Below are positions 4,320-27,549 of a stretch of DNA of 64,000 nt, one piece after another. Within the stretch, counting starts at the first letter, position 1. Each line of letters starts with the position of its first letter. The DNA is taken from NCBI GenBank assembly GCA_038062075.1, contig JBBTXY010000003.1:17589-81588 (forward strand), given 5' to 3'. The DNA comes from Patescibacteria group bacterium. Lineage in GTDB: Bacteria; Patescibacteriota; Minisyncoccia; Phycocordibacterales; UBA2100. Both the position numbers and the translations under genes were made by a program. The notes under the pieces were generated by a model, which worked only from the letters and a program-made list of their open reading frames with translations, was not told the origin of the DNA and ran no database searches.

Positions 4320-4322
4320 ACC

Positions 4323-9811: not shown

Positions 9812-9812
9812 T

Positions 9813-10730
9813 ATGGCTGAAACACTCCAACAAAAAGAGCCGTCACTCGTAGAACGATTCAAAGAGATTGGTTTCGATGATCATGTGATGCTTGCGGCAC
9901 AAGGTGCCGCGCGACTGGGTGCGCGGCAGATATTGAAATTCCACGGTGCGAGTCAGGAGAAACTTCGAACGGAATTGAAGGCAGGCGATATGACTCCTGT
10001 TACGGCTGCGGATATTGCATCGGAAGAGGCGATTCTCAAAATCATAACGACTCGATTGTATTCTCCAGACGAAGTACATGCGGAGGAAAAAGGCCGCGCT
10101 GATACCGCTGAGCACAGTATTATGTGGTACGTTGATCCTCTGGATGGCACTCGGAGTTTTACGCGTGAACAAACAGCTTCCACTGTAGGTATCTGCATGT
10201 ATGAACACAACGAGCCACACACCGCAGTAATCTGTCGACCGTTCCAGTGTGAGCTATTACTCGCGGGTAAAGGAAGAGGCGCATTTGTATTTCCACTTGA
10301 CGACAAGCAGAAAATAATCGGTCCGGCAAAGCGCGTTCACGTAGCAGAGAGAAAAGATCTCACAGGTGGGATTTTCTATTGGGACGGCGTCATGACAGGA
10401 AAGAATGTCGATCGTGCCCTCAGGATGTTTGAAGGGGTGATAGCGGATACCGGAAAAACCGATTTCCGCGCGTTGGGGACGAATATAGGCGAGCAGGCCG
10501 AAGTTGCGCTCGGACACGGCGACTTAAAGTTAACGACCGGCGTCGGGGGATTCTACGATATCGCAGTGGGGGGGTTAATAATCCAGGAAGCCGGAGGGGA
10601 GGTTATTGATGAAAACGGCAAGCCGATAAGCCCGGGATCTAAAGCTGCGCTCTTTGGTAATCCGGAACTCATTAAAAAGTACGGCCCCTTGTTCCAACAG
10701 TGCTATGCGGGCTATGACGGTTTCGCTTAG
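9813..10730 (+). CDS. Inositol monophosphatase family protein (IMPase/FBPase/CysQ fold) paralogue 1
   Basis: 'WYVDPLDGTRSF' plus 'EE' metal-binding motifs. Confidence 0.8.
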   Translation: MAETLQQKEPSLVERFKEIGFDDHVMLAAQGAARLGARQILKFHGASQEKLRTELKAGDMTPVTAADIASEEAILKIITTRLYSPDEVHAEEKGRADTAEHSIMWYVDPLDGTRSFTREQTASTVGICMYEHNEPHTAVICRPFQCELLLAGKGRGAFVFPLDDKQKIIGPAKRVHVAERKDLTGGIFYWDGVMTGKNVDRALRMFEGVIADTGKTDFRALGTNIGEQAEVALGHGDLKLTTGVGGFYDIAVGGLIIQEAGGEVIDENGKPISPGSKAALFGNPELIKKYGPLFQQCYAGYDGFA

Positions 10731-12351: not shown

Positions 12352-13227
12352 CTAAACGCGCAACACCTTGTCGCATAGATAGTCGACGATTTGCGGTGAG
12401 TTGCCGGTAACGAGGACGTCATACGCGAGGACGTCAAGAGGGTCGCATTCGGTGAATGAAAAGAGCTCCTTCTTGAACGCCCGGCAGAATCCGCCTGCCT
12501 GCTCCACGAGCAGTGACCCGCAGACATCCCACGGGCCGCCGATTGCGAGCGTGAGCGATCCGGCGATGGAGCGAGCACCATTCGCGACGAGCGCCTGATG
12601 CAAGCCGTTCGAGCCCGGGAGCAGGATTTTCACCTCGCCGTTAAGCGAAGCAAAGAGCTTCGCAGTCTGCGCATCGGTGAGTATCTGCCGACCAGCGCGC
12701 TTAAAGCCATGCGAGACGTCGACGAGAATTGTCAGTTGCTCGTTGACCTCGCTCGTCCTCTTGCCGTCCCATTCGTTGCCGACTTGTATCGGGGCCGAGT
12801 TTTCTCCTGTGGCGAAATTGTGCCACAGAAGCTGGGTTAGCGTTATGTCGCTCGCTGACCATATCCGGCCGGTAGCCGGTTCGCCAATGACGCACCGTGT
12901 TACCTTATGTACATTGTGGTCGTACGTTGCCGCGATGACTGTTGATGTTGCCAATCCGATGGCGAAGGCTCGCGTGCCGTCCATCGGATCCACCAATATT
13001 TTGACTGGCGCATCCACCGTGTGTCGGTCGGACTCCTCGGCATGGATGTAGGTGCCGGGGATGCCTTGCAGAACCTCAAGCATTGCCGCTTGGCTCTGCT
13101 TGTCGGTCGGCGTCACTTGCGTGCCGTCCGTCTGCTTCACTGCGGTCGTGGTCGGCCGGCCTTGGTTGGCACGGACGACTTTCATGCCCGCGATCACTGC
13201 CGTCGTGAGACGGTCGAGCATCTCCAT
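12352..13227 (-). CDS. Inositol monophosphatase family protein paralogue 2
   Basis: 'ILVDPMDGTRAF' motif. Confidence 0.75.
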   Translation of the reverse strand: MEMLDRLTTAVIAGMKVVRANQGRPTTTAVKQTDGTQVTPTDKQSQAAMLEVLQGIPGTYIHAEESDRHTVDAPVKILVDPMDGTRAFAIGLATSTVIAATYDHNVHKVTRCVIGEPATGRIWSASDITLTQLLWHNFATGENSAPIQVGNEWDGKRTSEVNEQLTILVDVSHGFKRAGRQILTDAQTAKLFASLNGEVKILLPGSNGLHQALVANGARSIAGSLTLAIGGPWDVCGSLLVEQAGGFCRAFKKELFSFTECDPLDVLAYDVLVTGNSPQIVDYLCDKVLRV

Positions 13228-13363: not shown

Positions 13364-14278
13364 ATGAAGAAGAAGATTTTGGTGACTGGAGTCGCTGGAT
13401 TCATCGGAAGCAATCTCGCGAAAAGGCTCGTCGAGGCGGGGTATGACGTGGTCGGCTTGGACAACTTTTCCCAGGGCATCCCCGAGCATGTGCCTTCCGG
13501 CATGCGTTTCAAGCAAGCCGATATCCGCTCCCGCGACATAGCACCACTCTTTCGTGGGATAGACGTCGTCTTTCACCTTGCCGCGAAGAATTCGCTTCGG
13601 GATTGCCAGGAAGATCCTGTGGGCACGATGGAGATGAATGTCGTCGGGACCGCGAACGTTTTCGACGTGTCCTTAAAAGCCGGCGTGAAGAAAGTGATCT
13701 ACGCGCAATCGTCGGTTGTTGAAGAAGGCGAGGAGCGCAGAAAAGGTTTCTATGCGATAAGCAAGATCACAGATGAGCTACTCGCGGGCGGGTTTCAGAC
13801 TATGGGTCTCACGACGGTCGGCCTCCGCTATTTCAATGTCTACGGCCCGGGGCAGGATTATCGCCGCTCCTCGCCGCCCATTATGAGCCGCTTCATCTCC
13901 ACGCTCCTCAAAGGGGAGCAGCCAGTTCTTTTTGAGGGTGATGAGAACAACAAGCGCGATTTCATACACGTCGACGACATCAACGATTTCCATCTCCTCT
14001 GTGTCGAAGACGAGCGGGTCGACAATCGAGTGTTTCGGCTAGGGACCGGGAAGAATTTCTCGATGGTTGAAGTGCTCGATACGGTTCAGAAAGTGCTCGG
14101 CACTCACACCGAGTCCTCCCACAAGCCGCGCCCTCCGCATGATCCTCCAGTCCAAACCCTCGCCGATATCAGCGAAACGACCGCACTCGGATGGCAGCCG
14201 ACAATCGGGCTTGAAGAAGGAGTCCGTAGTATGGTGCCCTATATCAAGGCTGAAATAGAGCGCGGGGCTCTCAAGTAG
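13364..14278 (+). CDS. NAD-dependent nucleotide-sugar epimerase/dehydratase (extended SDR)
   Basis: 'ILVTGVAGFIGSNL', 'YAISK' YxxxK. Confidence 0.8.
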   Translation: MKKKILVTGVAGFIGSNLAKRLVEAGYDVVGLDNFSQGIPEHVPSGMRFKQADIRSRDIAPLFRGIDVVFHLAAKNSLRDCQEDPVGTMEMNVVGTANVFDVSLKAGVKKVIYAQSSVVEEGEERRKGFYAISKITDELLAGGFQTMGLTTVGLRYFNVYGPGQDYRRSSPPIMSRFISTLLKGEQPVLFEGDENNKRDFIHVDDINDFHLLCVEDERVDNRVFRLGTGKNFSMVEVLDTVQKVLGTHTESSHKPRPPHDPPVQTLADISETTALGWQPTIGLEEGVRSMVPYIKAEIERGALK

Positions 14279-14310: not shown

Positions 14311-15303
14311 ATGATAATCACACGGACGCCATTTCGGGTGACTCTTGGCGGCGGCGGGACGGATTTGCCTGCCTACTACGAAAAACACGGCGGGTTCATC
14401 TTTTCCGCCGGACTCGACAAATACATGTATGTGACGGTAAACCGCCCTATGGAAGATGATCTCGTCCGCATCAAATACAGCGCGACTGAAGTCGTCAAGA
14501 AAGTAAAAGACATCAAGCATCCGATCGCACGAGAAGCTCTTACCATGCTGGGCGTTGAGAAGCAGGTCGAGATCAGTTCGGTTGCGGATGTTTCTGCGGG
14601 TACTGGTCTTGGCTCATCGAGCTGTTATGCGGTCGGGATTCTCCACGCGCTCCACGTGATGAAGCGCGATTATGTGCCGCTCCAGACGATCGCGGAAGAA
14701 GATTTTCTTCTGGAGAATAAGAAACTTGGCCGTCCGATAGGGAAGCAAGACCCCTACATGGCCGCGTTCGGCGGGCTCACGGTCTTAGATATCGCCAAAA
14801 ACGGTTCTGTGAAAGTCCGCAAAGCAAATGTATCGCAAGAAGCGGCCGACACGCTGAATCGCAACATGCTCATGTTCTTTACGGGGGTCACACGCAGTGC
14901 CGACGACATTCTCAAGCAACAGTCAAAGGCCTTCAAAGGAAACAAAAAAGACGCGACCGAGAGCATGCACTACATCAAGGAGATTGGGCACGAGATACTT
15001 GCGGCCATGGAGGATGACGAAGTTGATGAAGTGGGAAGGCTCTTCGATGCACACTGGCGACACAAGAAGAAGACAGCAAGCGGCATGTCGAACTCGAAGT
15101 TTGATGCGATCTACGAGACGGCGAAAGATGCCGGGGCGCTTGGGGGGAAGATTTCCGGCGCTGGCGGCGGCGGATTCTTTACATTCTATGTCCCGGAGAG
15201 GCACAAAGAATTCAGGAAGGCAATGCAGAAGTACGGCCTTCGCGAACTTCGCTACCACTTTGACTTCGAGGGATCAAAAGTCTTGGCCGACATCAGCCAG
15301 TAG
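14311..15303 (+). CDS. hddA: D-glycero-alpha-D-manno-heptose 7-phosphate kinase (GHMP kinase)
   Basis: 'MIITRTPFRVTLGGGGTDLP' HddA-type N-terminus; GHMP 'GLGSSS' motif. Confidence 0.7.
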   Translation: MIITRTPFRVTLGGGGTDLPAYYEKHGGFIFSAGLDKYMYVTVNRPMEDDLVRIKYSATEVVKKVKDIKHPIAREALTMLGVEKQVEISSVADVSAGTGLGSSSCYAVGILHALHVMKRDYVPLQTIAEEDFLLENKKLGRPIGKQDPYMAAFGGLTVLDIAKNGSVKVRKANVSQEAADTLNRNMLMFFTGVTRSADDILKQQSKAFKGNKKDATESMHYIKEIGHEILAAMEDDEVDEVGRLFDAHWRHKKKTASGMSNSKFDAIYETAKDAGALGGKISGAGGGGFFTFYVPERHKEFRKAMQKYGLRELRYHFDFEGSKVLADISQ

Positions 15304-15305
15304 CT

Positions 15306-16040
15306 ATGAAGGATCCGAAGCCGGTGCACAAACTGCGTCTGAAGATATTCGCTGATGGCGCAGAGAAAGACGGCATGCTCGCGCTTGCGAAAGAGCCTTT
15401 TATTAAGGGGTTTACCACCAACCCGACTCTCATGAAAAAGGCGGGTATTACTGATTATGCGGCGTTTGCAAAAGATATTCTCGCCTCCATAACAAAAAAA
15501 CCCATCTCATTCGAGGTTTTTTCCGACGATTTTGATGAGATGGAGCGGCAGGCGCGCATCATCAATGCGTGGGGGGAGAATATCTACGTGAAAATTCCGG
15601 TTACCAACACGAAAAAGAAGTCGGCCGCGGCGCTCGTCAGAAAGCTCTCTCATGAAGGGATTCGACTCAATGTCACGGCGCTTCTTACGCTTGTGCAAGT
15701 GAAGGAAATGACCGCAGCGCTCTCGCCGAAAACTCCCGCGATCATTTCTGTCTTTGCCGGCCGCATTGCGGATACGGGTTACGACCCGCTTCCTATCATG
15801 AAAGCCGCAAAAGCGATCACCTTGAGAAAGAAAAATATTGAGCTTCTCTGGGCGTCGCCGCGCCAGCTCTTTGACATCTACAATGCCGAGGCTGCGGGAG
15901 CCGATATTATTACGGTGACGCACGACGTTCTCAAAAAACTCGACAAGATCGGGTACGACCATACGGCACTTTCCCTGGACACGGTGAAAATGTTCTATGA
16001 CGACGGCCAGAAAGTTGGCTACACACTCTATGAAGCGTGA
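15306..16040 (+). CDS. tal: Transaldolase (short Tal/Fsa type)
   Basis: 'LKIFADGAE...GFTTNPTLM' transaldolase signature; lies between hddA and gmhA. Confidence 0.8.
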   Translation: MKDPKPVHKLRLKIFADGAEKDGMLALAKEPFIKGFTTNPTLMKKAGITDYAAFAKDILASITKKPISFEVFSDDFDEMERQARIINAWGENIYVKIPVTNTKKKSAAALVRKLSHEGIRLNVTALLTLVQVKEMTAALSPKTPAIISVFAGRIADTGYDPLPIMKAAKAITLRKKNIELLWASPRQLFDIYNAEAAGADIITVTHDVLKKLDKIGYDHTALSLDTVKMFYDDGQKVGYTLYEA

Positions 16041-16047
16041 GGCAAAA

Positions 16048-16710
16048 ATGAGAACGAAGAAGAAGCGCACTCGCACAAAAAAGCGGATCGCAAGAAAAAC
16101 GAGCTACCACGATCACATTCACGGCTACTTGGACGAAGTGAAGCTTATCGCGGAGCGGATTGATCGCGAAGCGATCAATGACATGATCAACCTGCTTGCG
16201 GATGTGCGCGATAAAAAGGGGCGGCTCTTCATTCTTGGTGTTGGCGGCTCTGCGGCCAACGCTTCTCATGCCGTCAATGATTTTCGAAAAATCGGGCACA
16301 TCGAGGCATACACGCCGGTGGATAATGTCGCAGAGTTAAGCGCCCGTACGAACGACGACGGATGGGAATCGGTCTTCGCCCGATGGCTGGAGCGCAGTGG
16401 CGTTCGGAAAGATGACGCCGTCATGGTGTTTTCTGTTGGCGGCGGGAATGCCGAGAAGAATATAAGCGCCAATATCGTGCATGCACTTAACACTGCCAAA
16501 GCTGCAGGCGCGAAGATCATGGGTATCGTGAGCCGTGATGGAGGTTATACCGCACAAGTTGCCGATGCCTGTGTCATCGTGCCAGTCGTAAATCCCGACA
16601 ACGTGACCGCGCACGCGGAGGCGTGGCAGGCGGTCGTCTGGCACGCGATGGTCCTCCATCCGAAATTCAAGCGTATTGAGGCAACATGGGAGTCAATCCA
16701 AAAAAGATAG
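16048..16710 (+). CDS. gmhA: Sedoheptulose-7-phosphate isomerase (SIS domain)
   Basis: 'LFILGVGGSAANASHAVNDF' SIS motif; N-terminal Lys/Arg-rich extension. Confidence 0.7.
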   Translation: MRTKKKRTRTKKRIARKTSYHDHIHGYLDEVKLIAERIDREAINDMINLLADVRDKKGRLFILGVGGSAANASHAVNDFRKIGHIEAYTPVDNVAELSARTNDDGWESVFARWLERSGVRKDDAVMVFSVGGGNAEKNISANIVHALNTAKAAGAKIMGIVSRDGGYTAQVADACVIVPVVNPDNVTAHAEAWQAVVWHAMVLHPKFKRIEATWESIQKR

Positions 16711-17294
16711 AACTTATTCGCCAAGTGTGGGCAAAAGGGAACCGTGTCGCACGGCCCGCAGTTTTTTTTGACAGGGACGGGGTTGTGATCCGACAGCGTA
16801 ATGTGGTGAGCGAGGAGAAACATATGCGCCCGCTTGCGGGAGCAGCTGCAGGACTACGCTCACTTCAGGAGTGCGGATTTCTGCTCATCATCATCACGAA
16901 TCAGCCGTCCATTGAAAAGGGTATGGTGACGGAGGCGCGCGCGCGAAGACTTAATGAGTATTTATACCAGGAGCTCAAGAAAAAAAGAGTAACATTTGAC
17001 GCATCGTACACGTGTCCGCATCGTTTCGGGACGGAGTGCACCTGCCGCAAGCCGGGTCTCGAGCTCATCCGCGCGGCACAAAAAGATTTCAAAATTGATA
17101 TGAAGCAGAGCTGGCTTATCGGCGATACGACGCGTGATATGGAAACTGGACGCCGCGCCAAGCTAAAGACGATTCTCGTCAAAACCGGCGATGGCGGGAA
17201 AGATAAAAGATTTTTCAAAACGCGAGGGGACATTGAAACGCGAAATTTGCGCCTCGCGGCGCAGGCCATTGCAAAGAAGAAGGGCCGACTGTAA
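16686..17294 (+). CDS. gmhB: D,D-heptose 1,7-bisphosphate phosphatase (HAD-IIIA, Zn-binding CxHx..CxC)
   Basis: 'VFFDRDGVV' plus 'CPHRFGTECTCRKP' zinc motif typical of GmhB/HisB-N. Confidence 0.7.
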   Translation: MGVNPKKIELIRQVWAKGNRVARPAVFFDRDGVVIRQRNVVSEEKHMRPLAGAAAGLRSLQECGFLLIIITNQPSIEKGMVTEARARRLNEYLYQELKKKRVTFDASYTCPHRFGTECTCRKPGLELIRAAQKDFKIDMKQSWLIGDTTRDMETGRRAKLKTILVKTGDGGKDKRFFKTRGDIETRNLRLAAQAIAKKKGRL

Positions 17295-17317: not shown

Positions 17318-18019
17318 TTAGGAAAGGTTTTCGATAAGCGCAAGCATGTTGATCTCGCGCCAGTCGAAAAAGATGCGACAAACGCCAGCCTCGACAAGCG
17401 CGGCAACCGTCGTTGGTCGAATGACGACCGGCATTCCGATTGCTTTTGACCCGGCCCCTCTCAGAGCCTTGACGCCGCGGGGTGAATCTTCGAAACCAAT
17501 CTGATCTCTAGGGTCAATTCCCATGACATCGGCGGTCCGCAGGAACACATCTGGAGCGGGCTTCTCGTTTCTGACGTGCTCGCGGAGAACGATTGTCTTT
17601 TTGTCGAACAGCTCACTGAGTCCTGATCGCTCAAGAAGTGTCATGGCTTGCCCTTCTGGTGTAAGAGAACCAATGGCAAGCTTTAAGCCCAGCGCTTGTG
17701 CTATCCTGAATGCCTCAAGAAATCCTGGGCGGGTCTCAATGGGCACTGTCGCGAGCAGACGCTCGTAGTAGTATTTGTCGCGGCTTAGCACTTCACCAAC
17801 TGCTATGCTGGTGCGTGCTGCTGGATCGAGCAGGGCAAAAATGTCTTCACACACTCGCTCATCCGGCCCACCGATGAAGTGCGGTAATTTCACATACGCC
17901 TCTTCGAGTGTGAGGTTAACTCCGAATTCTGCCGCCGTCGCGAGATGGCCGTAGTGGTGTGCAGTTTCAACGTTAACAACAGTACCTTCGAGGTCGAAGG
18001 CGATTCCTCTTATGGGCAT
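17318..18019 (-). CDS. HAD-IA hydrolase (beta-phosphoglucomutase/phosphatase-like)
   Basis: 'IAFDLEGTV' motif I; HAD core. Confidence 0.7.
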   Translation of the reverse strand: MPIRGIAFDLEGTVVNVETAHHYGHLATAAEFGVNLTLEEAYVKLPHFIGGPDERVCEDIFALLDPAARTSIAVGEVLSRDKYYYERLLATVPIETRPGFLEAFRIAQALGLKLAIGSLTPEGQAMTLLERSGLSELFDKKTIVLREHVRNEKPAPDVFLRTADVMGIDPRDQIGFEDSPRGVKALRGAGSKAIGMPVVIRPTTVAALVEAGVCRIFFDWREINMLALIENLS

Positions 18020-18031
18020 GACACCCTCCTT

Positions 18032-18466
18032 TCATTTCAAAGATGTGAATGCGAGTCCGACGACGCCGATTACGATAAAAGCCGTGAAGGCGATTTTGGG
18101 GCCGGTCACCGGATCACCGAAGAAGATCGGCCCGCCGATAGCATTCGTGACAATGACAAGTGCCGGCATCAGCGTCATGTAGAGCGAGATCTGCGTCCCC
18201 GCAGCTGTTTGCAGCTTGGGGAACAACATATGCCCAGCGAGATTGAGACATCCCGCAATGAGCATATATTTCGCTCCGGTTGAAACAAGTGTTGCCGAAG
18301 ATATCCTTCCCGGTAAGAAGGGAAGAAATCCGATCGTCGTGACCGCATTCAAGAGAAAGCCTCTGACGAACGGGTCGGAGATGTCGCTTGCCTGCGCCAC
18401 AAGGGGCCAGCCGCCCCAAAATACGACTCCGATCAGCGCCACAAGCGCCAATGAGGTGATGTCCAT
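18032..18466 (-). CDS. Small 4-TMS membrane protein (DMT/EamA-like; ArnE/F-like candidate)
   Basis: 144 aa, four hydrophobic spans. Confidence 0.4.
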   Translation of the reverse strand: MDITSLALVALIGVVFWGGWPLVAQASDISDPFVRGFLLNAVTTIGFLPFLPGRISSATLVSTGAKYMLIAGCLNLAGHMLFPKLQTAAGTQISLYMTLMPALVIVTNAIGGPIFFGDPVTGPKIAFTAFIVIGVVGLAFTSLK

Positions 18467-18565
18467 CGGTTTATCCTTTCAAGGTGCAGTTTGAACGCAG
18501 CCAAGATAGTACCACAAGTATTGAGTATTACAAGTGGGCGGGGGTGCAGTTCGTAATCAGCCTGC

Positions 18566-19552
18566 CTACGCAGTTGCATCAGGTCTGCGGACCGACCACC
18601 CATGCTTTGGCAGTTGGTCGAAGAGCCACTCTGCGATTGCTGGTTCGCCGGCGACGAAGCCGAGGCGGTTTTCGCGGCTCGCCACGGAAAAGGAACGCTC
18701 GTCGTATTCTGCTGCTGGAACGAGTTTCGAAGTCCCGTCGTTTGCATCCATGTCCGGGACGAGACGAAAGAATTTGAAGACCCTTCCGCTCTCGAGGACG
18801 GCGCGGTACATCGGTGCCCAATCCCATGGTTTTTGCGGCGTTTGGATCAGAGCCTGAAGTCTTCCGGTGGCTATTTGTGCAAGCGCTAAGAGGCCGGAGT
18901 TTGCCAGTGTCCACGCACGGATCTGCGACGCGATAGACGGGACGGCGGACATGAACGGCTGGTGGAGCGTCGCGTCAACTCCCATCGCTACAATTGCATC
19001 TTTGCGCGCTGTGCCTTCGTGCAACGGCTCGATGCGCTCGGGCTTCTTGGCACCCCATTCAGTAATGTACACACCTTTCCCTTTTTCTGCCGTAACCGTC
19101 ATACCGCCGTTGAGCGCCGGCGCGTGCAGGACGCTTCCTATAAGCTCGCCATGCTGCATAAGCCCTGCGCCAACCGACCAGGTGCCCAGTTTGTTCGCGT
19201 ATCCGGCCGTGCCATCTATGGGATCCATGACGACAACGTTGGCCATTTCGAGTATTCCCTTAGGATTATTGATATCAAGCACCTTCCCGCCGCCTACACC
19301 TCCTTCTTCGGAGAGAATGTAGGCCTCGGGAAATGCGTGGCCGATGTTCTCAAAAAGTATGTCTTGTGCGCGCACGTCCCCGCTGGTGATACCAGAACGA
19401 TGGCTTTCGTCTCCCTTGATCTCGAATGCCCGCTCTTCAAGCTCTTTTATCGATGAACCCGCTGAAACAACCGCACCTAATAATCGAGCGATTGATCTTG
19501 GATTTTCGAGTGTTACGTCAGTCCTTTCGATCATGTCATTCTTTGTGCGCAT
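18566..19552 (-). CDS. Inositol monophosphatase family protein paralogue 3
   Basis: 'VVMDPIDGTAGY' motif. Confidence 0.7.
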   Translation of the reverse strand: MRTKNDMIERTDVTLENPRSIARLLGAVVSAGSSIKELEERAFEIKGDESHRSGITSGDVRAQDILFENIGHAFPEAYILSEEGGVGGGKVLDINNPKGILEMANVVVMDPIDGTAGYANKLGTWSVGAGLMQHGELIGSVLHAPALNGGMTVTAEKGKGVYITEWGAKKPERIEPLHEGTARKDAIVAMGVDATLHQPFMSAVPSIASQIRAWTLANSGLLALAQIATGRLQALIQTPQKPWDWAPMYRAVLESGRVFKFFRLVPDMDANDGTSKLVPAAEYDERSFSVASRENRLGFVAGEPAIAEWLFDQLPKHGWSVRRPDATA

Positions 19553-20291
19553 CTCCGAGTATCGCGTCCTCGACGAGCATGCGGAGATCCGAGGGAGCCA
19601 GGAATTTCTGCGACAGCTGCGGATTATTCTCTTTTACGAGCTCGAACAGCTCTTTTTCTACTATTTCCGTTATTTCTTCCTGTTTGTCGAAAAGCGGGGT
19701 ACCGCCATACAGCTCATTCCCAACATCAATATTCATTTTCGGGCTCCGTTTCCGCAGAGCTTCGAAACGTTGGTGCCAATCTTGCAGATATGCACGCCCG
19801 TCAGGCGTCGTACCGAGACACGAGTCCACATACCTCATTATCTTTTCTTTCATGTTCCATGTATCGAAATCCCGCAAGTCATGTCCCGTCACTCTCTCAA
19901 TGCCGCGTTTCTCCCGCTCCATTTGATCAAGTATCTTTGAGTCCGATCCGGTCATGACGAGTCCCTCTGATGTCCGCGTTCCCGGCAATTGCGCCTGTTC
20001 TTTCTGCAGACGCTTGTCCCAATCATGGGTCAGGGCGGCGGACGTGAGCTCGTGCAGGTCGGCCTCCTCAAGCCCCGCGAGCCTGCCGAGCATGTATGCG
20101 GTGACGCCCGCAAGCAAGCAGTGTTCGGCGATATTGCGCCAACCTTCGGATCCGTGGCCCAATATCTTCCCTTTCTTTAGGACGCGCATCGCATCAATGT
20201 GGGACAACGCGAAACGCGAGAAATATTTCGTCTTTGCATCTTCTTGTACGGGCTTCTCTAATGGCATATTTTTGCTGGGAACATAGAACAT
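19536..20291 (-). CDS. HD-domain phosphohydrolase
   Basis: 'H..LLAG' ... 'LTHDWDK' HD motif. Confidence 0.65.
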   Translation of the reverse strand: MFYVPSKNMPLEKPVQEDAKTKYFSRFALSHIDAMRVLKKGKILGHGSEGWRNIAEHCLLAGVTAYMLGRLAGLEEADLHELTSAALTHDWDKRLQKEQAQLPGTRTSEGLVMTGSDSKILDQMEREKRGIERVTGHDLRDFDTWNMKEKIMRYVDSCLGTTPDGRAYLQDWHQRFEALRKRSPKMNIDVGNELYGGTPLFDKQEEITEIVEKELFELVKENNPQLSQKFLAPSDLRMLVEDAILGDAHKE

Positions 20292-20313: not shown

Positions 20314-21618
20314 ATGAGTTCGGGATATATCATAGGCGTCATAGGATTATGGCACTTGGGGGAGGTGTATTCGGCATGTTTGGCGGAGATCGGCCACACG
20401 GTCGTTGGGTTGAGTGAAGACATAACCCTCATTGAGAATTTCCAGAAGAACATTCCGCCGCTTGCGGAACCGAAACTCACCGAGTTGCTTGAAGCGAACC
20501 AGAAAGCCGGGCGGCTCTCATTCTCGACCGATCTATCGAAGGTGAAAGATTCCACGATCGTGTGGTTTACAGAAGATGTCCCGACTGACGAGAACGACAC
20601 GGCGGATGTCTCAGGACTTATCGGCACTGCGAAAAAGATCGCGCCATATCTCTTTCAAGGAGTTACCATCGCCGTTTCAAGCCAGCTTCCTGTTGGTACT
20701 TCTGCGAACATTATTGAGACGATCAAAGCCACACGACCTGATTTACAGTTTGAGTATTTCTATTCGCCGGAAAACCTGCGCTTAGGAGACGCGGTCAGGT
20801 GCTTCATGGAGCAGAAACGAGTCGTCGTGGGTGCACAAACACCGCGCGGACTGGAGGTGGCAAGGGAGATTTTCGCGCCCTTGAAGACGGAAATCGTAAG
20901 CATGTCGCCAGCATCTGCGGAAATGGCCAAGCATGCTCTGAATGCGTGGCTTGCGACGTCCATCGGATTCGCAAACGACCTCGCCGACGTGTGCGAGAAA
21001 GTCGGCGCTGATGTCGAGGATGTTATCAAAGCATTAAAGAGCGAGCCGCGGGTGGGGGAGAAAGCCTATCTTTTCGCGGGGCTCGGATTCGCAGGCTGGT
21101 CCATTGCTCGCGACTTGAAAGTACTCATGGCAGTAGCTGGAGAGAAGCACATTGAGCTTCCCATCATCGCTGGTGCCTACGCGAAAAACCGCGCGCGCAC
21201 GAGCATCGTCCTTGCCCGACTGCGCGAACGCTTCGGCGAGATCAAAGGTAAAACATTCGCCATTTTTGGCGTCACCTATAAGGCAGGAACGCCGACTTTG
21301 CGCCATTCGCAATCTCTTCAGGTAGAAGCGGAGTTATGGGCTGCGGGCGCGACGATCCGGCTCTACGATCCGCTCGCAAGAGCTGATGATGTTGCGGTCG
21401 TAACGCCCGCAGCGTTCTTTAACGATCCGTATGAGGCAGTGCAGGGTGCTGATGGCGTCCTTATCCTCGTTCCCGATAGAGCCTTACAGGAGTTGGATTT
21501 CAAAAAAATCGCATCTATAATGCGAACGCCGTTTCTTTTTGATGCACAAAACATTTTGGTTTCGAAAGAGACAACCATTCGCGCCGAAGGCATTGAGTAT
21601 AGTAGTATTGGACGATGA
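20314..21618 (+). CDS. Nucleotide-sugar 6-dehydrogenase family (UgdH/TviB/WbpA-like) with catalytic Cys replaced by Ser
   Basis: 'IGVIGLWHLGEVYSA' NAD fold; 'VCEKVGADVEDVIKAL' central domain; active-site block 'GLGFAGWSIARD' aligns to the canonical 'GxGxGGSCFPKD' (Ser codon TCC at 21100-21102). Confidence 0.75.
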   Translation: MSSGYIIGVIGLWHLGEVYSACLAEIGHTVVGLSEDITLIENFQKNIPPLAEPKLTELLEANQKAGRLSFSTDLSKVKDSTIVWFTEDVPTDENDTADVSGLIGTAKKIAPYLFQGVTIAVSSQLPVGTSANIIETIKATRPDLQFEYFYSPENLRLGDAVRCFMEQKRVVVGAQTPRGLEVAREIFAPLKTEIVSMSPASAEMAKHALNAWLATSIGFANDLADVCEKVGADVEDVIKALKSEPRVGEKAYLFAGLGFAGWSIARDLKVLMAVAGEKHIELPIIAGAYAKNRARTSIVLARLRERFGEIKGKTFAIFGVTYKAGTPTLRHSQSLQVEAELWAAGATIRLYDPLARADDVAVVTPAAFFNDPYEAVQGADGVLILVPDRALQELDFKKIASIMRTPFLFDAQNILVSKETTIRAEGIEYSSIGR

Positions 21619-22604
21619 ATCCCGGGATGAAAATCGCGCTTGTTGGCGCAGGAGGCATAGGGAGCACGTGGGCGAAAGCGCTTCAGAAGAGCGGCGCGCA
21701 CGTATCTGTTGTCGTTGATACAGACGAGTCGAGAGCCAAAGAAGCTGCCGTCATGCTTGGAGCGGAGTCTACGACCGACTGGAAGGAAGCCGTGGGAAGA
21801 GCGGACGCGGCGATTGTTGCCGTGCCGCACGTGTATTTGGCGCCGATAGTGAAAGGATTTCTCTCAGGAGGAGTACATGTGCTGTGCGAAAAACCAGGGG
21901 GGATTTCGTCGCACGAGGTGGCGGACGTAGTCGCACTCGCATCACAGAAAGGCCTCGTCTACATGCCCGGCTTCAATCATCGCTATCATCCTGCGTTTGC
22001 GGAGGCGAAGAGGCGCTTCGACGCGAGCGAGATAGGAGACCTCATGTTCATCCGTGCCCGATATGGTTTCGGCGGGCGGAAGGACTTTGAGAAAGAATGG
22101 CGGTTCGATGCGGGAGTTTCCGGCGGGGGTGAGCTTCTCGATCAGGGCATCCACATGATAGACATAGCGCGCTGGTTCATGAGGGACATTGTCGACGTCA
22201 AAGGCTTCGCGGAGAATATGTTCTGGGGCGGAGGAGTCGAAGATAACAGCTTTCTCCTTCTGCGGAATGCCGCGCATCGAGTCGCGCAGATCCATGTGTC
22301 GTGGACGAATTGGGACTGGATACACTCGTTCGAGATATTTGGCACAAAAGGCTATCTCATTATCGACGGTCTTGATTCGCGCTATCGCGGCCCGGAGCGG
22401 CTGACAGTGGGGCATGCCGATCCGCGTGCCGGGACTTTTCCTACGGAAGAAACCATCACGTATGCGGAAGAGAAGAAAGAAGATTCCCTGCGGCGGGAGG
22501 CTGAGGCGTTCGCAGAAGCCGTCGCGGGGAAAGCAGTTGCCATTCCGAGCGGAGCCGATGCGGTCGCAGCACTTCGTATTGTCGAAGAGGTATATGGGAA
22601 ATAA
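21615..22604 (+). CDS. Gfo/Idh/MocA-family NAD(P) oxidoreductase
   Basis: 'MKIALVGAGGIG' N-terminal Rossmann, 'EKP' motif. Confidence 0.75.
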   Translation: MNPGMKIALVGAGGIGSTWAKALQKSGAHVSVVVDTDESRAKEAAVMLGAESTTDWKEAVGRADAAIVAVPHVYLAPIVKGFLSGGVHVLCEKPGGISSHEVADVVALASQKGLVYMPGFNHRYHPAFAEAKRRFDASEIGDLMFIRARYGFGGRKDFEKEWRFDAGVSGGGELLDQGIHMIDIARWFMRDIVDVKGFAENMFWGGGVEDNSFLLLRNAAHRVAQIHVSWTNWDWIHSFEIFGTKGYLIIDGLDSRYRGPERLTVGHADPRAGTFPTEETITYAEEKKEDSLRREAEAFAEAVAGKAVAIPSGADAVAALRIVEEVYGK

Positions 22605-23409
22605 AACGGCATTGATCACGGGTGGCAGTCGCGGAATAGGGCTCGCGATCGCGCGAGGCTTGGCAAACGACGGATACGAGGTGATCCTGGTTGCGCGTAA
22701 ACAGGAAGAACTTAACGATGTGCAAAAGAGCATGCCGTCTCGCGCACAGACGTTCGCGGTTGATGTCACTGATGCGGAGGCGGTCGCTGGAATGTGTCGG
22801 ACGATTCCTGCACTCGATATTCTCGTCAACGCCGCAGGCGTGATAGAGCCGATCGGATCGATCGAGAATGTCGATCCGGAGCAATGGCTCCAGCTCTTGA
22901 AAATCAATGTGTTCGGGACATTCCTCATGACACACGCCTGCGTCCCGCTCCTTGCAAAACGCGGTGGCACCATCATTAATTTCGTGGGAGGTGGAGAAGG
23001 CGCGTTTCCGAATTTCAGCGCGTATGCCGCAAGCAAGGGCGCAATCGCGCGCTTCACCGAAACCGCTGCGGTGGAGCTGAAGACAAAGAACATCACGGTG
23101 AACGCCATAGCGCCGGGGCCGGTCAACACGAAGATGACGGACAACATGATAGCTGCAGGGGAGGACGCGGGAGCACAATACGAACGGGCGCTTAAGCAAA
23201 AAGAGAGTGCCGCGGCGACGCCGGAGAAGGTCGTGCGTCTCGCACTCTGGCTGTGTTCCGATGCGTCTCGCGGCATCACGGGGAAAATTATCTCCGCGCA
23301 ATGGGATGACTACGAGAAGTTTCCGGAACATAGAAAAGAGATTTCCTCGACCGACGTGTACACAATGCGGCGTGTGCGGCCGAAGGACCGCGGACTCTCA
23401 TGGGAATGA
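22594..23409 (+). CDS. Short-chain dehydrogenase/reductase
   Basis: 'TALITGGSRGIGLAIA', 'NAAG', 'YAASKGA'; start at internal ATG 22594. Confidence 0.75.
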   Translation: MGNKTALITGGSRGIGLAIARGLANDGYEVILVARKQEELNDVQKSMPSRAQTFAVDVTDAEAVAGMCRTIPALDILVNAAGVIEPIGSIENVDPEQWLQLLKINVFGTFLMTHACVPLLAKRGGTIINFVGGGEGAFPNFSAYAASKGAIARFTETAAVELKTKNITVNAIAPGPVNTKMTDNMIAAGEDAGAQYERALKQKESAAATPEKVVRLALWLCSDASRGITGKIISAQWDDYEKFPEHRKEISSTDVYTMRRVRPKDRGLSWE

Positions 23410-24125
23410 TCACGCAAGCAGTCATATCAGCAGGAGGATTCGGGACTCGTTTGAAGCCATTTACTGATACTGCACCAAAGCCCATGGTGCCAATTTTAGG
23501 TAAACCGCTTCTGGAGTGGCACATCGAGCAATTTAAGAAGCATGGTGTGACCGAGTTTTTTCTTACGCTGCATTATTTGCCCGAGGTTATAAGGGAGTAT
23601 TTTCAAGACGGTTCATCCCGAGGCGTGCATATTGAGTATGTGGTTGAAGCAGAGCCACTCGGCTCTGCGGGAGGATTGAAACTCGTAGAGAAGAAATTAG
23701 ACACGCGATTCTTTTACATCTACGGCGATACCTTCAGTCTCATGGACTATTCCGCGATGGCACAAAACTACGCGACAAGAAAGGATCCTCTTGGCATGCA
23801 GAGGATGAAGCAGACCGGCGACTACGCTGATGCTGACGTTGCAGAACTCGATGAAAATTGCAGGTTTGTCGGCATTCATGCGAAGCCACATTCGCATATA
23901 TACAAAAACGCCTATCGTATGCGCGGCGTCTTTATTCTTGAAAAGGAGATATGCAACTTCATTCCAGATGGCCCGTCAGACTTGGCTAAGCAGGTGCTTC
24001 CAGCGGTGCTTGCCGCGGGCAAGAATTTCTACGGCTACGAGTGCGACGATTACTCGAAAGGCATTGATACTGTCGAAAAACTGCGGGAGGTTGAAAGCTA
24101 CCTCACAACGCGCGGGTTAGGATAG
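23400..24125 (+). CDS. Sugar-1-phosphate nucleotidyltransferase (HddC/GMPP-like)
   Basis: 'AVISAGGFGTRLKPFTDTAPKPMVPILGKPLLEW'. Confidence 0.7.
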   Translation: MGMITQAVISAGGFGTRLKPFTDTAPKPMVPILGKPLLEWHIEQFKKHGVTEFFLTLHYLPEVIREYFQDGSSRGVHIEYVVEAEPLGSAGGLKLVEKKLDTRFFYIYGDTFSLMDYSAMAQNYATRKDPLGMQRMKQTGDYADADVAELDENCRFVGIHAKPHSHIYKNAYRMRGVFILEKEICNFIPDGPSDLAKQVLPAVLAAGKNFYGYECDDYSKGIDTVEKLREVESYLTTRGLG

Positions 24126-25103
24126 TTCTGAAAGACGCACAACACGTTTCTCTTGGAAGGAGCGACGTCCCGCATCTACAACATGCGCCTGTACGAGCAG
24201 GTCTTCTTCGTAGCGTTTTGTGCTTGCTTCGCCCAAGGCCACCTCGCTGCAAAAGTCATCAACCATGAGTTTGAAATGATCGGCCGGCTCGATGCATATT
24301 TCTTCGCGGGCATTTCCGACTTCTAGAAATATTCTCACGGCCAAGTCTTTGGGAACCGCATAGGCCCGCTCCATACTGATGCTTCCTTTCGTTCCGAGCA
24401 CGCGGTATGTGGAGCGATAGTCGGAGTCGAACGCGCTTGAGATAGAGGCAGTGCGGCCGGAATACGTAAGAGTGGCGTCAGCTTTCACATCCACTCCGAG
24501 CGCGGGATCTATCGTCAGGTTGCAGGTGATACTTTGCGGCTCTTCGCCGAAAGCAAAGCGGCTGGCGCGGATGGGATAAACAAGCGCGTCATAGTAAATG
24601 CCTCCGCCTAAGCGTGCATTGAGCCGGATATTGCCAACGTCAGGCATGGGGAATGCAAAGCGGCCTTCGAATCCGGTTATTTCTCCGAGTGTGCCGCTCT
24701 GGATGATCTCGCGTACCCGTTTCTGTTGCGGGTGGTAGAGGAACATGAAGCCCTCCATCAGGCGCACATTATTTGCGCGCGCGGCAGTCACCATTTTTTG
24801 TGCTGACGCATACGAAAGCGCGGCGGGCTTCTCGCACCACACGTGTTTGCCTGCTTCGAGTGCGCGAACACTCCATTCTTCGTGGAGGGAATTGGGAAGG
24901 GAAATATAGACCGCGTCTATGTTCGGATTCGCGAGCACGTTTTCGTACGAACTGGCCGGGCAATCGAATCCCTGCACATTCGCAGGAGTGCGGCTCCCTA
25001 CCATTGCCAACTCCGCGTGCGTGCTTGCAATAATCGCGGGGATCGCGGCTTTTTTCGCGATGCGTGATGCGCCCAAAACCCCGAATCGTATCTTGTTGTG
25101 CAT
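24117..25103 (-). CDS. Gfo/Idh/MocA-family oxidoreductase
   Basis: 'IRFGVLGASRIA', 'EKP' motif. Confidence 0.75.
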   Translation of the reverse strand: MHNKIRFGVLGASRIAKKAAIPAIIASTHAELAMVGSRTPANVQGFDCPASSYENVLANPNIDAVYISLPNSLHEEWSVRALEAGKHVWCEKPAALSYASAQKMVTAARANNVRLMEGFMFLYHPQQKRVREIIQSGTLGEITGFEGRFAFPMPDVGNIRLNARLGGGIYYDALVYPIRASRFAFGEEPQSITCNLTIDPALGVDVKADATLTYSGRTASISSAFDSDYRSTYRVLGTKGSISMERAYAVPKDLAVRIFLEVGNAREEICIEPADHFKLMVDDFCSEVALGEASTKRYEEDLLVQAHVVDAGRRSFQEKRVVRLSELS

Positions 25104-25111
25104 CCAAAGGT

Positions 25112-25537
25112 TTACGCGGCAGGCGGTTTGTAGTTCGGATCGCCATGATCGCCGACACCCATGCCGAGGTTTTCGTGGATGATCGGGACCTTGCAGTCAT
25201 CCCATTTTTTGGTGAGAAATGTCACGATGTTCATGTCGGTGATCGCGTAAAGGACGTGGACGACGCCGCGCGGCGTATAGGTGCAATCGCCTTTCCCCAC
25301 ATAGAGGAAATCTTCCTTCCCGTTCTCATCCTTCGAGACGAGGACGCCGTGGCCGTCGGTGATGACGTAGTACTCGTCGAATTCGGGGTGGGAGTGGTTG
25401 CCGCGGATCTTGCCCTTATTGATGAACTGAAAATTGAATTCGACAATGGGTTTTTCGGGGTAGAAGGTGAAGATGCCGCCGCGCCCGTCGCGGACGGTAT
25501 CAAGGTTGCACGCAGGCTGGATCTTTCTCGTATTCAT
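25112..25537 (-). CDS. Cupin, FdtA/QdtA(WxcM)-like NDP-4-keto-6-deoxyhexose 3,4-ketoisomerase
   Basis: 'RGNHSH' (RGxHxH) motif; ~140 aa. Confidence 0.5.
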   Translation of the reverse strand: MNTRKIQPACNLDTVRDGRGGIFTFYPEKPIVEFNFQFINKGKIRGNHSHPEFDEYYVITDGHGVLVSKDENGKEDFLYVGKGDCTYTPRGVVHVLYAITDMNIVTFLTKKWDDCKVPIIHENLGMGVGDHGDPNYKPPAA

Positions 25538-25620: not shown

Positions 25621-26271
25621 ATGGGTTTCATCTTTCAGCCGAACCGTCACGTGCTGTTGCAGCAGGTGACGAAGTATGCCTATTACATCCATGGCAGGAC
25701 GCTTGATGTCGGCTGTGGGCCAACCCCCCGGTACCGTCACTTGTTCAAGGAGTGCACGGAATACGTGAAGATGGACATCGAGGCGGGAGAAAATGTTGAT
25801 GTCGTTGGTTTCGCCGAAGCGATACCGTTTCCTGACGATTCGTTCGACTCCATCGTCTGCACCGAGACCATTCAGGATGTTTTTGAGCCGGTCAAAGGCA
25901 TAACCGAATTCGCGAGGGTATTGAAGAAAGGCGGTGTTGTGCTTATGACGGCGCCAAGCATTTCAAGGCAATCGGAGAGCCGGACCGATAATTGGCGATT
26001 CACTCGGCATAGCTTCAGGAAGCTCGCAGAAGACGCCGGCTTCAGAGTCGAGGTATTCGAACAACGCGGAGCATTCTGGAGCACGCGAGCACAGCTCACT
26101 ATAAGCTACTGGATTGCCAAATTCGGGGTCTATGGCGCATGGTACGAACGACCGTTCGGAATTCTGGCATCGGCGTTCGGAAGGTTCTCAATATGGCTCG
26201 ATGGGTTCGAGAAGGAGCCGTTGCGCAACGCATTCACGAACGGGTATCTCCTTGTCGGGAGGAAATCATGA
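25621..26271 (+). CDS. Class I SAM-dependent methyltransferase
   Basis: 'LDVGCGP' motif I, Methyltransf_11-like. Confidence 0.7.
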   Translation: MGFIFQPNRHVLLQQVTKYAYYIHGRTLDVGCGPTPRYRHLFKECTEYVKMDIEAGENVDVVGFAEAIPFPDDSFDSIVCTETIQDVFEPVKGITEFARVLKKGGVVLMTAPSISRQSESRTDNWRFTRHSFRKLAEDAGFRVEVFEQRGAFWSTRAQLTISYWIAKFGVYGAWYERPFGILASAFGRFSIWLDGFEKEPLRNAFTNGYLLVGRKS

Positions 26272-27549
26272 GGAGGTGTGTTCTTTGTTTCGGATCGCGT
26301 ACCACAGATACCACGTAATGACGCACGACGCCGCATAGGTAAGCACTTGCCCGGCGACCGCGCCCCAGAGACCGAATGTCTTGATAAGAAGAAGAGCGCT
26401 TATCGCGGCAATGATGCTGGGGATGTTCCACAGATACAAGAGGCGTCTCGGGATGAGCGTGACGCGGGAATCAATAGCGGCACCCACGAGTGCAGTCCCG
26501 ACCTGGAGGAGGATCGTGATGGAAAAGAAGAGTGAGAGCGGGACGGCTTCGATGTATTGGGGGAAGAAGATAAAGTAAAACGGATATGCGAGCAGACAGT
26601 AGGCGAGCGTTATGCCAGCCCCCAGGATGAAGAGCACGCCGGTGCGCTTCATGAGGATGCTCTTGATGGCCGCAGTGCTCTGTCCTGCAAGTTTCGGCAG
26701 CGCAAGGATGGTCGGCGTATTCACGATGGTTCGCAGGTGGGAGACCGGTGCCATCGCGAATGCAAACAGTGCGAGTTCGGCAGCGCCGAGGTAATGGAAA
26801 ACGAGGATGGCGTCGAGTGACGATATCACGATGTTGGATGCGTTGATGGCGCTGGAGTGGAGCGCGTAGGAGAGCGCGCCGGGTTCGTTTGTGTCGTTTG
26901 AGGGGAATTTACGGAGCGTTATCTGCAGGGAAATATATCGTGTGAGCGTCCAGGCGCTGGCATACACTGCAAAGATAATAATGGGATTGTCGGTGAAGAA
27001 GAGTGTGGCGATAAGCGCCGCGGCAGCGGCGATCTGCCCGAGGACGCCAAGAATGCTTGAGAGCTTGAAATCTTTCTTCCCCACAAGAACCGCATTGAAT
27101 ATCCCAAACGGCTCCATGAAAGGAATGAAGAACGCCGCGAAGATGAGCCCAGTGCCAAGCGTATCGTTCCCGTTGTAGAAGTAGTACGCCGCGCCGCAGA
27201 GGGCGCCCAAGGAGCCGAGAAGGCTCCAGCGCATCTTCGCCCAGAGCCCCATCATGACCGTGCCGTCGTTCCCGCGTGCGGCACCCTGCGTGACGGCGGT
27301 GTCCATCCCGCGCAGACAGGCGACGCAGAAGATGCCGAAGAGGGTGAGAATGTATTTGTAGACGCCGTAATCGTGCTGGGTGAGAAGATTTGCAAAGGCA
27401 AGCGCAAGGAGAAATGAGACTGCGGCAGTTATAATGGAAGAACTTGAGAGCCAAAAACTGCCCCGCGCAAGGTAGACCATGTCGGTCCCGGTATATTTCT
27501 CGCTCCAGCGCAAGGCGCGCACGAGCTGTTCCTTCGAGTACCGATACAT
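26266..27549 (-). CDS. Wzx-like oligosaccharide flippase (MOP superfamily)
   Basis: 427 aa, ~12 TMS, polysaccharide-biosynthesis-protein pattern. Confidence 0.65.
   Translation of the reverse strand: MYRYSKEQLVRALRWSEKYTGTDMVYLARGSFWLSSSSIITAAVSFLLALAFANLLTQHDYGVYKYILTLFGIFCVACLRGMDTAVTQGAARGNDGTVMMGLWAKMRWSLLGSLGALCGAAYYFYNGNDTLGTGLIFAAFFIPFMEPFGIFNAVLVGKKDFKLSSILGVLGQIAAAAALIATLFFTDNPIIIFAVYASAWTLTRYISLQITLRKFPSNDTNEPGALSYALHSSAINASNIVISSLDAILVFHYLGAAELALFAFAMAPVSHLRTIVNTPTILALPKLAGQSTAAIKSILMKRTGVLFILGAGITLAYCLLAYPFYFIFFPQYIEAVPLSLFFSITILLQVGTALVGAAIDSRVTLIPRRLLYLWNIPSIIAAISALLLIKTFGLWGAVAGQVLTYAASCVITWYLWYAIRNKEHTSS

Follow-up and report, generated by a model that had tools for sequence, protein, structure and literature searches.

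What does an enzyme with the fold of UDP-glucose dehydrogenase (UGDH) catalyse when the cysteine that serves the second oxidation of this family is missing? The question is raised by an open reading frame (ORF) at positions 20314-21618 (forward strand) of a 64,000-nucleotide stretch of DNA from a Patescibacteria group bacterium (GenBank assembly GCA_038062075.1, contig JBBTXY010000003.1, positions 17,589 to 81,588), which was analysed as a whole and is referred to here as the window. The ORF encodes a Cys-less nucleotide-sugar dehydrogenase homologue of 434 residues, recognised as such from its translation, Pfam domains, the NCBIfam model TIGR03026 and an AlphaFold2 model. An original prediction, made from the sequence, had read this protein (the query) as a UGDH in which the catalytic Cys had been replaced by Ser and a Lys by Arg, and which might stop at an aldehyde or be otherwise repurposed. 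In the following we argue, with a probability that we put at roughly 55%, that it is a single two-electron dehydrogenase of the C6 secondary alcohol of a nucleoside diphosphate (NDP)-octose, most probably GDP-octose.

In UGDH, C6 of the substrate is held against NAD+, and a Lys, an Asn and an Asp serve the first hydride transfer. The Cys, the Thr of the STVP motif together with a water molecule, and Glu residues serve the oxidation of the thiohemiacetal and the hydrolysis of the thioester. The roles of Cys, Thr118 and Lys204 have been described for SpUGDH (PMC6367545).

The reading frame of the query is intact and preceded by a ribosome-binding-like stretch (GTGAGGG), and all three UGDH domains were recovered by Pfam (PF03721, 7.8e-30; PF00984, 4.1e-23; PF03720, 5.8e-22). 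The best solved relative is UgdG of Sphingomonas (4a7p, pairwise phmmer E-value 3.2e-72), and the AlphaFold2 model, built on the family alignment with a mean predicted local distance difference test score (pLDDT) of 94.5, was matched by Foldseek to BceC and UgdG with a template modelling (TM) score of 0.93 at 31-34% identity. The active-site block AGLGFAGWSIARD (residues 255-267; 21076-21114, forward strand) stands opposite AGPGYGGSCFPKD of 4a7p in the phmmer alignment, with Ser263 facing the catalytic Cys, Arg266 facing the Lys, and Asp267 kept. The same register was obtained from a 62-sequence family profile aligned with the solved UGDHs 4a7p, 3gg2 and 2y0c/d/e; codon 263 is TCC (21100-21102) and the codon before it is TGG, for Trp262. 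Both substitutions named in the original prediction are thus confirmed: no Cys aligns at the catalytic position, and a misplaced motif is ruled out by the two independent alignments. Sequencing error and pseudogenisation were likewise rejected, as the ORF is intact, the trait is family-wide (see below) and the identical protein occurs in at least three independent groundwater Patescibacteria assemblies (NCBI GCA_964363605.1, ENA ERZ1292627 and ENA ERZ1292643).

Further departures from canonical UGDHs, which the original prediction did not mention, lie outside this block. The dinucleotide-binding motif reads G11-L-W13-H14-L-G16 (20344-20361, forward strand) in place of GxGYVG, the second Gly of the GxGxxG pattern being Trp, and alignment with the solved UGDHs shows STVPVGT changed to SSQLPVGT and NPEFLREG to SPENLRLG. 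Gln124 and Leu157 thereby replace the STVP Thr and the second Glu of PEFLREG, which take part in the handling of water and thioester. The Lys/Asn/Asp core of the first oxidation (K204, N208 and D264 in SpUGDH) is present as Lys206, Asn210 and Asp267, and Glu153 of the PE motif is also kept. The only NCBIfam model passed is the broad subfamily TIGR03026 (297 bits), and the equivalog cut-offs of the nucleotide-sugar 6-dehydrogenases (TuaD, AglM, WecC, TviB and others, covering UGDH and N-acetylmannosamine (ManNAc) dehydrogenases) were all missed widely, with 275 against 700 bits for the best UGDH model, and 196 against 670, 109 against 750 and 35 against 592 bits for others. A normal four-electron UDP-glucose dehydrogenase is therefore an unlikely identity for the query.

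The absence of Cys is not a peculiarity of one genome. The 120 nearest homologues, which range from 100% to 46% identity and come from Kaiserbacteria, Liptonbacteria, Paceibacterota and others, are without Cys at the site throughout, with Thr in 113 (GGTL[GAN]RD) and Ser in seven, and all 120 carry G[LIM]WH[LC]G; since the Cys is missing from every one of them, a read error can be ruled out. When 1.84 billion representatives of 50%-identity clusters were searched exhaustively and the best 150 examined, about 122 of these carried a co-varying signature composed of GLWHLG, SSQxP, PENLRLG, KHAxN and GG(T/S)LxRD, and 19 were canonical. The consensus of this clade at the active-site block is G-F-[SA]-G-G-T-L-[AG]-R-D. 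Similarly, Thr occupies the site in 97 of 101 loci among the matches listed from GTDB genomes, and a protein search seeded from Mycolicibacterium returned GGTLxRD in all 120 matches listed (GGTLARD in 116). The query is a member of a very large, un-named Cys-less branch of the UDP-glucose/GDP-mannose dehydrogenase family, so that the description of a UGDH variant with "Cys replaced by Ser" has to be given up in favour of a deep clade in which the normal residue is Thr. Its members are uniformly mis-annotated in the database names of the matches as UDP-glucose 6-dehydrogenase. Literature searches returned nothing relevant on natural Cys-less UGDH homologues or on GDP-octose outside the lincosamides, and PDB sequence and Foldseek comparisons found no solved structure for any clade member.

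How Ser came to stand in the query can be read from its relatives. In a neighbour-joining tree the Ser-bearing sequences are nested inside Thr-bearing ones, with a second, independent change from Thr to Ser in one further sequence (P0053), and the Thr codons are ACN in 103 loci among the matches listed. Since Ser is nested within Thr lineages and Thr is encoded by ACN, the tree and the codons indicate that the Ser of the query descends from Thr and not from Cys; Ser arose from Thr at least twice, and the conserved feature at the site is the hydroxyl. The subclade of the query is a further variant of the clade, with G262W, T263S, L264I, D34S and T89V, so that GWSI is found for GGTL.

The conservation pattern separates the two half-reactions. 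In the 122 clade representatives, Lys206, Asn210, Asp267 and Glu153 are conserved to 98-100%, as in canonical enzymes, while Gln124 (98%) and Leu157 (99%) are fixed against Thr (100%) and Glu (95%) in the canonical representatives, and Trp13 (89%) and His14 (95%) against Gly (100%) and Tyr (89%). Positions fixed differently between the two groups are G13W, Y14H, V15L, G88D, G95D, T124Q, F154N, E157L, Y207H, S262G, C263T, K266R, F322Y and D328T; those conserved in both include G11, G16, D34, E52, T89, P90, S123, P126, P152, E153, K206, N210, R246, G261, D267, N292, K323, R330, D352 and D410. The residues of the second half-reaction have thus been replaced in concert (C263T/S, T124Q, E157L, K266R, F154N and S262G), and they include the catalytic Cys, the residue that matches Thr118 of SpUGDH and, in PEFLREG, the second Glu. 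Near C6, F154N, T124Q, Y207H and C263T bring in polar side chains and S262G removes one, changes that fit a pocket which would hold and hydrogen-bond a hydroxylated C7-C8 tail. Rather than a damaged UGDH, we lean, by a modest margin, towards a catalytically competent member of the family.

The genes around the query encode, by their domains, a set of enzymes for sugar-phosphate assembly and nucleotide activation. On the forward strand upstream lie a short-chain dehydrogenase/reductase (SDR) of the extended, sugar-nucleotide epimerase type, LmbM-like (13364-14278), with resemblance to GalE and heptose 6-epimerases (130 bits with the NCBIfam model GalE and 117 bits with heptose_epim, neither reaching its threshold); a GHMP sugar-phosphate kinase similar to HddA and LmbP (14311-15303; PF00288, PF08544); a small transaldolase with an LmbR-like role (15306-16040; PF00923, 3.8e-39), which passes TIGR02134 with 333 bits against a cut-off of 282; a SIS-domain ketose-phosphate isomerase, GmhA/LmbN-like (16030-16710; PF13580); and a HAD-IIIA sugar-bisphosphate phosphatase, GmhB/LmbK-like (16686-17294; PF13242, PF13419), whose histidinol-phosphatase-type domain passes TIGR01656 (107 bits, cut-off 84). 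Downstream and on the same strand, a Gfo/Idh/MocA NAD(P) oxidoreductase with an LmbZ-like role (21615-22604; PF01408, PF22725, PF02894) overlaps the end of the UGDH-like gene by the four bases ATGA, and is followed by a classical, FabG-like SDR ketoreductase (22594-23409; PF13561 and PF00106, E-value about 1e-49) and a sugar-1-phosphate nucleotidyltransferase, LmbO/HddC-like (23400-24125; PF00483, 1.7e-24), the best NCBIfam matches of which, mannose-1-phosphate guanylyltransferase and HddC, are both sub-threshold. The public gene call for this last gene starts at 23484 and misses some 24 profile positions at the N-terminus; these are present in the ORF that begins with the ATG at 23400, which has a 10-base overlap at the stop of the SDR.

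This gene set recalls the biosynthesis of the lincosamide sugar, for which the lmb and ccb gene products have been assigned as phosphatase (K), dehydrogenase (L), epimerase (M), isomerase (N), NAD(P)-oxidoreductase (Z), kinase (P), nucleotidyltransferase (O), transaldolase (R) and aminotransferase (S) (PMC4351081, PMC12945683), and in which GDP-octose is converted into GDP-lincosamide by LmbM, LmbL, CcbZ and CcbS (PMC12945683). LmbL and CcbL, of lincomycin and celesticetin biosynthesis, go by the name "C8 dehydrogenase". Eight of these nine functions (R, N, P, K, O, M, L and Z) are also represented by the query and its neighbours.

Whether the association holds beyond the window was examined with a three-motif DNA pattern for the clade (in high-GC codons), which used no neighbour information and was run on one genome per GTDB species. 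It yielded at least 120 loci, and the clade gene was confirmed in 101 to 105 of those listed, depending on the filter. Within 8 kb of the clade gene, 81 of 101 listed loci have the epimerase, 70 the SDR, 68 the Gfo/Idh/MocA protein and 54 the GHMP kinase; the transaldolase (38/101), nucleotidyltransferase (37/101), SIS isomerase (35/101) and HAD phosphatase (34/101) are found less often. Counted over 105 listed loci, the gene directly adjoining the clade gene is most often the SDR (67), followed by the epimerase (52) and the Gfo/Idh/MocA gene (36). Because the motif scan was blind to neighbours, the association with these partners is a real property of the clade.

The same nine families adjoin the clade gene in four lineages of the candidate phyla radiation (CPR), and the same gene set is carried by plasmid 3 of Lawsonia intracellularis (with RefSeq labels of SIS, HAD-IIIA, transaldolase, nucleotide sugar dehydrogenase, SDR, Gfo/Idh/MocA, galactokinase and nucleotidyltransferase) and by Rhizobium jaguaris, and it recurs in Mycolicibacterium and numerous metagenome-assembled genomes. 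Acidobacteriota, Actinomycetota (Solirubrobacterales and others), Planctomycetota, Myxococcota, Chloroflexota, Elusimicrobia and others are represented among the listed loci, and cultured carriers among the matches listed include Mycolicibacterium sp. P1-18 (Actinomycetota) and Gemmata algarum (Planctomycetota). The transaldolase is retained in the cassettes of Rhizobium, Mycolicibacterium, Acidobacteriota and others. In one locus on a 651-kb Patescibacteria contig (L004), the transaldolase and the SIS isomerase are fused into a single protein of 451 residues (3806-5161, forward strand; PF00923 and PF13580), from which it may be argued that they catalyse consecutive steps.

The replacements, the clade and the cassette are observed, whereas it is our inference which sugar is bound, which of its positions is oxidised, how the steps follow one another and what is made, namely an NDP-8-deoxy-octose destined for a surface glycan. 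The transaldolase would join a pentose 5-phosphate and a C3 unit to octulose 8-phosphate, and the SIS isomerase, GHMP kinase, HAD phosphatase and nucleotidyltransferase would complete a nucleotide-activated octose. With NAD+, the UGDH-like enzyme would then convert the secondary alcohol at C6 into a ketone, the C6 hydroxyl being secondary because the chain of an octose (or a heptose) continues beyond C6. Since oxidation would end at the ketone, neither thiohemiacetal nor thioester would form and the Cys would be needless; Ser263, or Thr in most members, would only hydrogen-bond the substrate. The Gfo/Idh/MocA partner would subsequently effect the loss of the C8 hydroxyl and the return of the hydride, giving a 6-keto-8-deoxy sugar, and the SDR would reduce the 6-ketone at the point where the lincomycin route transaminates. 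It is a tentative extension, and one we hold somewhat less probable than its opposite, that the clade and its nine-gene cassette form a widespread route of primary metabolism to a nucleotide-activated C8 sugar, probably NDP-8-deoxy-octose, for cell-surface glycans, of which the lincosamide pathway would be a specialised offshoot and in which the UGDH fold would have turned from a thiol-dependent four-electron oxidase into a dehydrogenase that forms the C6 ketone and makes up one half of a split 6,8-dehydratase.

Several points weigh against this reading. The dinucleotide site is remodelled throughout the clade (G13W, G88D, G95D), with D34S at the beta-2 acid in the query subclade, and the use of NAD is uncertain because of this remodelling. 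A heptose is a possible substrate, the building enzymes being homologous to those of the GDP-heptose pathway, and the bulky Trp262, where the clade has Gly, could mean that the substrate of the query differs from that of the rest of the clade. The cassette is split in the window, with three opposite-strand genes (17318-20291) between the building genes and the operon of the UGDH-like gene. The window genes scanned (13.3-46 kb) include no aminotransferase, a classical SDR standing in its place, and no cassette variant with an aminotransferase appeared among ten ORFs of SDR-less loci. We know of no 8-deoxy-octose glycan from any carrier organism. LmbL and CcbL are likened to the query by the match of gene sets, and LmbL would probably be a UGDH-family protein without the Cys; together with LmbZ/CcbZ it reportedly performs the 6,8-dehydration (Wang et al. 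2020), which serves here as a lead.

The strongest competitor would keep the chemistry and exchange the sugar. The query would act at C6 (or C7) of GDP-D-glycero-D-manno-heptose supplied by the HddA/GmhA/GmhB/HddC-like neighbours, for example to invert C6 or to modify the heptose otherwise, with the transaldolase supplying only sedoheptulose 7-phosphate. We regard this as improbable. In its favour, the kinase, isomerase, phosphatase and transferase have their best NCBIfam matches in the heptose pathway and the epimerase resembles a heptose 6-epimerase; in addition, the central metabolism of Patescibacteria is often incomplete, and a private transaldolase could be useful there. Those matches, however, fall far below the heptose equivalog cut-offs (HddA 155 against 600 bits, GmhA 63 against 209, GmhB 128 against 178, HddC 59 against 300), and the transaldolase is kept in Rhizobium, Mycolicibacterium and Acidobacteriota, where ordinary pentose-phosphate metabolism is to be expected. 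Where the pentose-phosphate pathway is normal, sedoheptulose 7-phosphate can be had without a dedicated transaldolase, and the octose route as published begins with a transaldolase. Moreover, the known 6-epimerisation takes one SDR and not three redox enzymes, and a heptose offers no C8 hydroxyl to the logic of a dehydration.

A less probable alternative takes the remodelled cofactor site at face value. The protein could be a non-redox or cofactor-locked subunit that no longer binds NAD+ exchangeably and serves the Gfo/Idh/MocA protein as its dehydratase or enolase-like partner, or as a scaffold, with Lys206, Asn210 and Asp267 serving in acid-base catalysis. The clade-wide changes of the NAD pocket (Trp for the second Gly of GxGxxG, DTP for VGTP, Asp for G95) and the tight, often overlapping pairing with the Gfo/Idh/MocA gene speak for it, but G11, G16, T89 and P90 are kept, 84% of the clade retain the beta-2 Asp, and position 13 is still Gly, Ala or Ser in a few members, which argues that the cofactor site is in use.

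There is little to recommend the proposal of the original prediction that the enzyme is a one-step dehydrogenase stopping at the 6-aldehyde of a UDP-hexose (glucose, N-acetylglucosamine or ManNAc). The nucleophile is lost and the residues of the first step are kept, as expected of such an enzyme, but none of the conserved neighbours would have a use for a hexose 6-aldehyde, the partners instead make a sugar phosphate de novo, and Cys-to-Ala mutants of UGDH release no aldehyde (PMC6367545). The genomic context points away from these UDP-hexoses and from an aldehyde product.

Finally, that the protein is still a UDP-glucose 6-dehydrogenase, with Ser263 as an oxygen nucleophile, feeding the UXS-like enzyme encoded at 37736-38800, is favoured by the presence of this gene without a canonical UGDH in the window, but is very improbable, since Cys-to-Ser mutants of human and streptococcal UGDH stall as a stable covalent ester and do not turn over (PMC6367545; the loss of normal turnover in engineered variants had been rightly cited in the original prediction), the Thr that is the norm of the clade is a poorer nucleophile, the hydrolysis residues are gone, the UGDH equivalog models are missed widely, and the UXS-like gene lies outside the conserved cassette.

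The UXS-like gene itself was correctly spotted. Its best PDB match is human UXS1, a UDP-glucuronate decarboxylase (37736-38800, reverse strand; 2e-56, the next family at 1e-32). A link to the query is not supported, as the gene belongs to another group of genes at a distance of 16 kb, between an FkbM-type methyltransferase (36827-37726, forward) and a TylC3-type sugar C-methyltransferase (38839-40197, forward), and it appears unconnected to the conserved cassette. By tblastn no canonical Cys-bearing UGDH, and hence no such paralogue, occurs within the 64-kb window, the rest of the genome not having been searched; because of this, the source of UDP-glucuronate, if the UXS-like enzyme uses it, would lie elsewhere in the genome.

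Other genes of the window surround the cassette. A second Gfo/Idh/MocA oxidoreductase (24117-25103, reverse; PF01408, PF22725), convergent with the operon, probably provides an extra tailoring step. It is followed by a small cupin (25112-25537, reverse), a class I methyltransferase (25621-26271, forward) and a Wzx-type flippase (26266-27549, reverse), which suggests further sugar tailoring and export in the lineage of the query. An ORF of 251 residues (19536-20291, reverse), divergent from the UGDH-like gene and overlapping a gene of the inositol-monophosphatase family, has no Pfam or NCBIfam match; a gene of 257 residues without a Pfam family takes the equivalent position in the locus with the fused transaldolase (L004). 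Four genes of the inositol-monophosphatase family occur in the window (9606-10730, forward; 12352-13227, reverse; 18566-19552, reverse; 44058-44954, forward), and another adjoins the cassette in a second CPR locus (L005); they may be sugar-phosphate phosphatases of glycan pathways.

Some loci depart from the common arrangement. In a CPR contig (L006, 8001-10874 and flanks), a minimal set of UGDH-like gene, SDR and transaldolase was found, with no other cassette genes within 8 kb, beside TagF-like glycerophosphotransferases, polysaccharide deacetylases and an ACPS/FkbH-like pair. An actinomycete contig of 75% G+C (L130; Logan SRR32660064) has the clade gene followed, with a 4-bp overlap, by the Gfo/Idh/MocA gene and then, in place of the usual SDR, by a PHP-like protein with an HxH...D motif recognised by eye, and may represent a different cassette variant. 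Two archaeal metagenome-assembled genomes (L069, Altiarchaeales; L117, Micrarchaeota) carry Gfo/Idh/MocA, SDR, UGDH-like, epimerase, transaldolase, SIS and GHMP genes, which could reflect horizontal transfer or a binning artefact. No Streptomyces appeared among the at least 120 loci of the high-GC motif scan, protein searches with Mycolicibacterium and 75%-GC seeds gave only unnamed or non-Streptomyces clade members among the matches listed, and tblastn against plasmids found clade members only in Rhizobium and Lawsonia. A match in Nonomuraea lacks, by motif scan, the PENL, KHxxN and Cys-site motifs of the clade.

These results bear on annotation and on the chemistry of bacterial surfaces. Thousands of database proteins labelled "UDP-glucose 6-dehydrogenase" or "nucleotide sugar dehydrogenase" would be unable to perform that reaction, and the signature GLWHLG, PENLRLG and GGTLxRD, which separates the clade from true UGDHs, would allow their annotations to be corrected. 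The cassette predicts an unrecognised higher-carbon envelope sugar in many uncultured and some cultivable bacteria, the latter including Lawsonia intracellularis (a pig pathogen), Rhizobium jaguaris, Mycolicibacterium sp. P1-18 and Gemmata algarum. If this is true, a route to C8 sugars spans Patescibacteria, Acidobacteriota, Actinomycetota, Planctomycetota, Chloroflexota, Lawsonia, Rhizobium and some archaea, and the cassette suggests where the unusual octose chemistry of lincomycin originated. The clade would further provide a natural example of the loss of a covalent nucleophile alongside a change of substrate from a primary to a secondary alcohol.

Among known systems, canonical UGDHs (4a7p, BceC 2y0c, human UGDH) have in common with the query the three-domain fold, the Lys/Asn/Asp core, Glu153 and the C-terminal nucleotide-binding domain with Lys323 and Arg330. 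They differ in their Cys, Lys and STVP Thr, for which the query has Ser (Thr in the clade), Arg and Gln, and in the second Glu of PEFLREG, GxGYVG and VGTP, in place of which Leu, GLWHLG and DTP are found in the query and its clade. In the pathway to GDP-D-glycero-alpha-D-manno-heptose, GmhA, HddA, GmhB and HddC are homologous to four neighbours of the query, all of which score below the curated cut-offs. To our knowledge, this pathway has no dedicated transaldolase and no UGDH-like, Gfo/Idh/MocA or FabG-like SDR partners.

The only probable characterised relative is LmbL, judged by gene set and described function. Tight packing is common to both systems, the lmb genes L-M-N-Z-P-O overlapping by 4 bp (PMC7014725) as the operon of the window does at ATGA, and the Gfo/Idh/MocA partner, in the role of LmbZ/CcbZ, adjoins the query as it belongs to the lincosamide gene set. 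The lincomycin pathway proceeds with the C6 aminotransferase LmbS, whereas the cassette of the query has a classical SDR, implying a hydroxy and not an amino product; and lmb is an antibiotic gene cluster, whereas the query lies in a surface-glycan island of a Patescibacterium and its clade occurs in many non-producer phyla. Fold and chemistry are probably as in LmbL, with differences in the terminal step, the biological setting and the active site, where GWSI stands for GGTL. A purely mechanistic analogue is offered by the NDP-hexose 4,6-dehydratases, which follow the same logic of carbinol oxidation, elimination of water across the two adjoining carbons and return of the hydride. These enzymes have an unrelated fold, and a single protein with tightly bound NAD+ performs all steps, whereas the route proposed for the query would divide them over two proteins, one of the UGDH fold and one of the Gfo/Idh/MocA fold.

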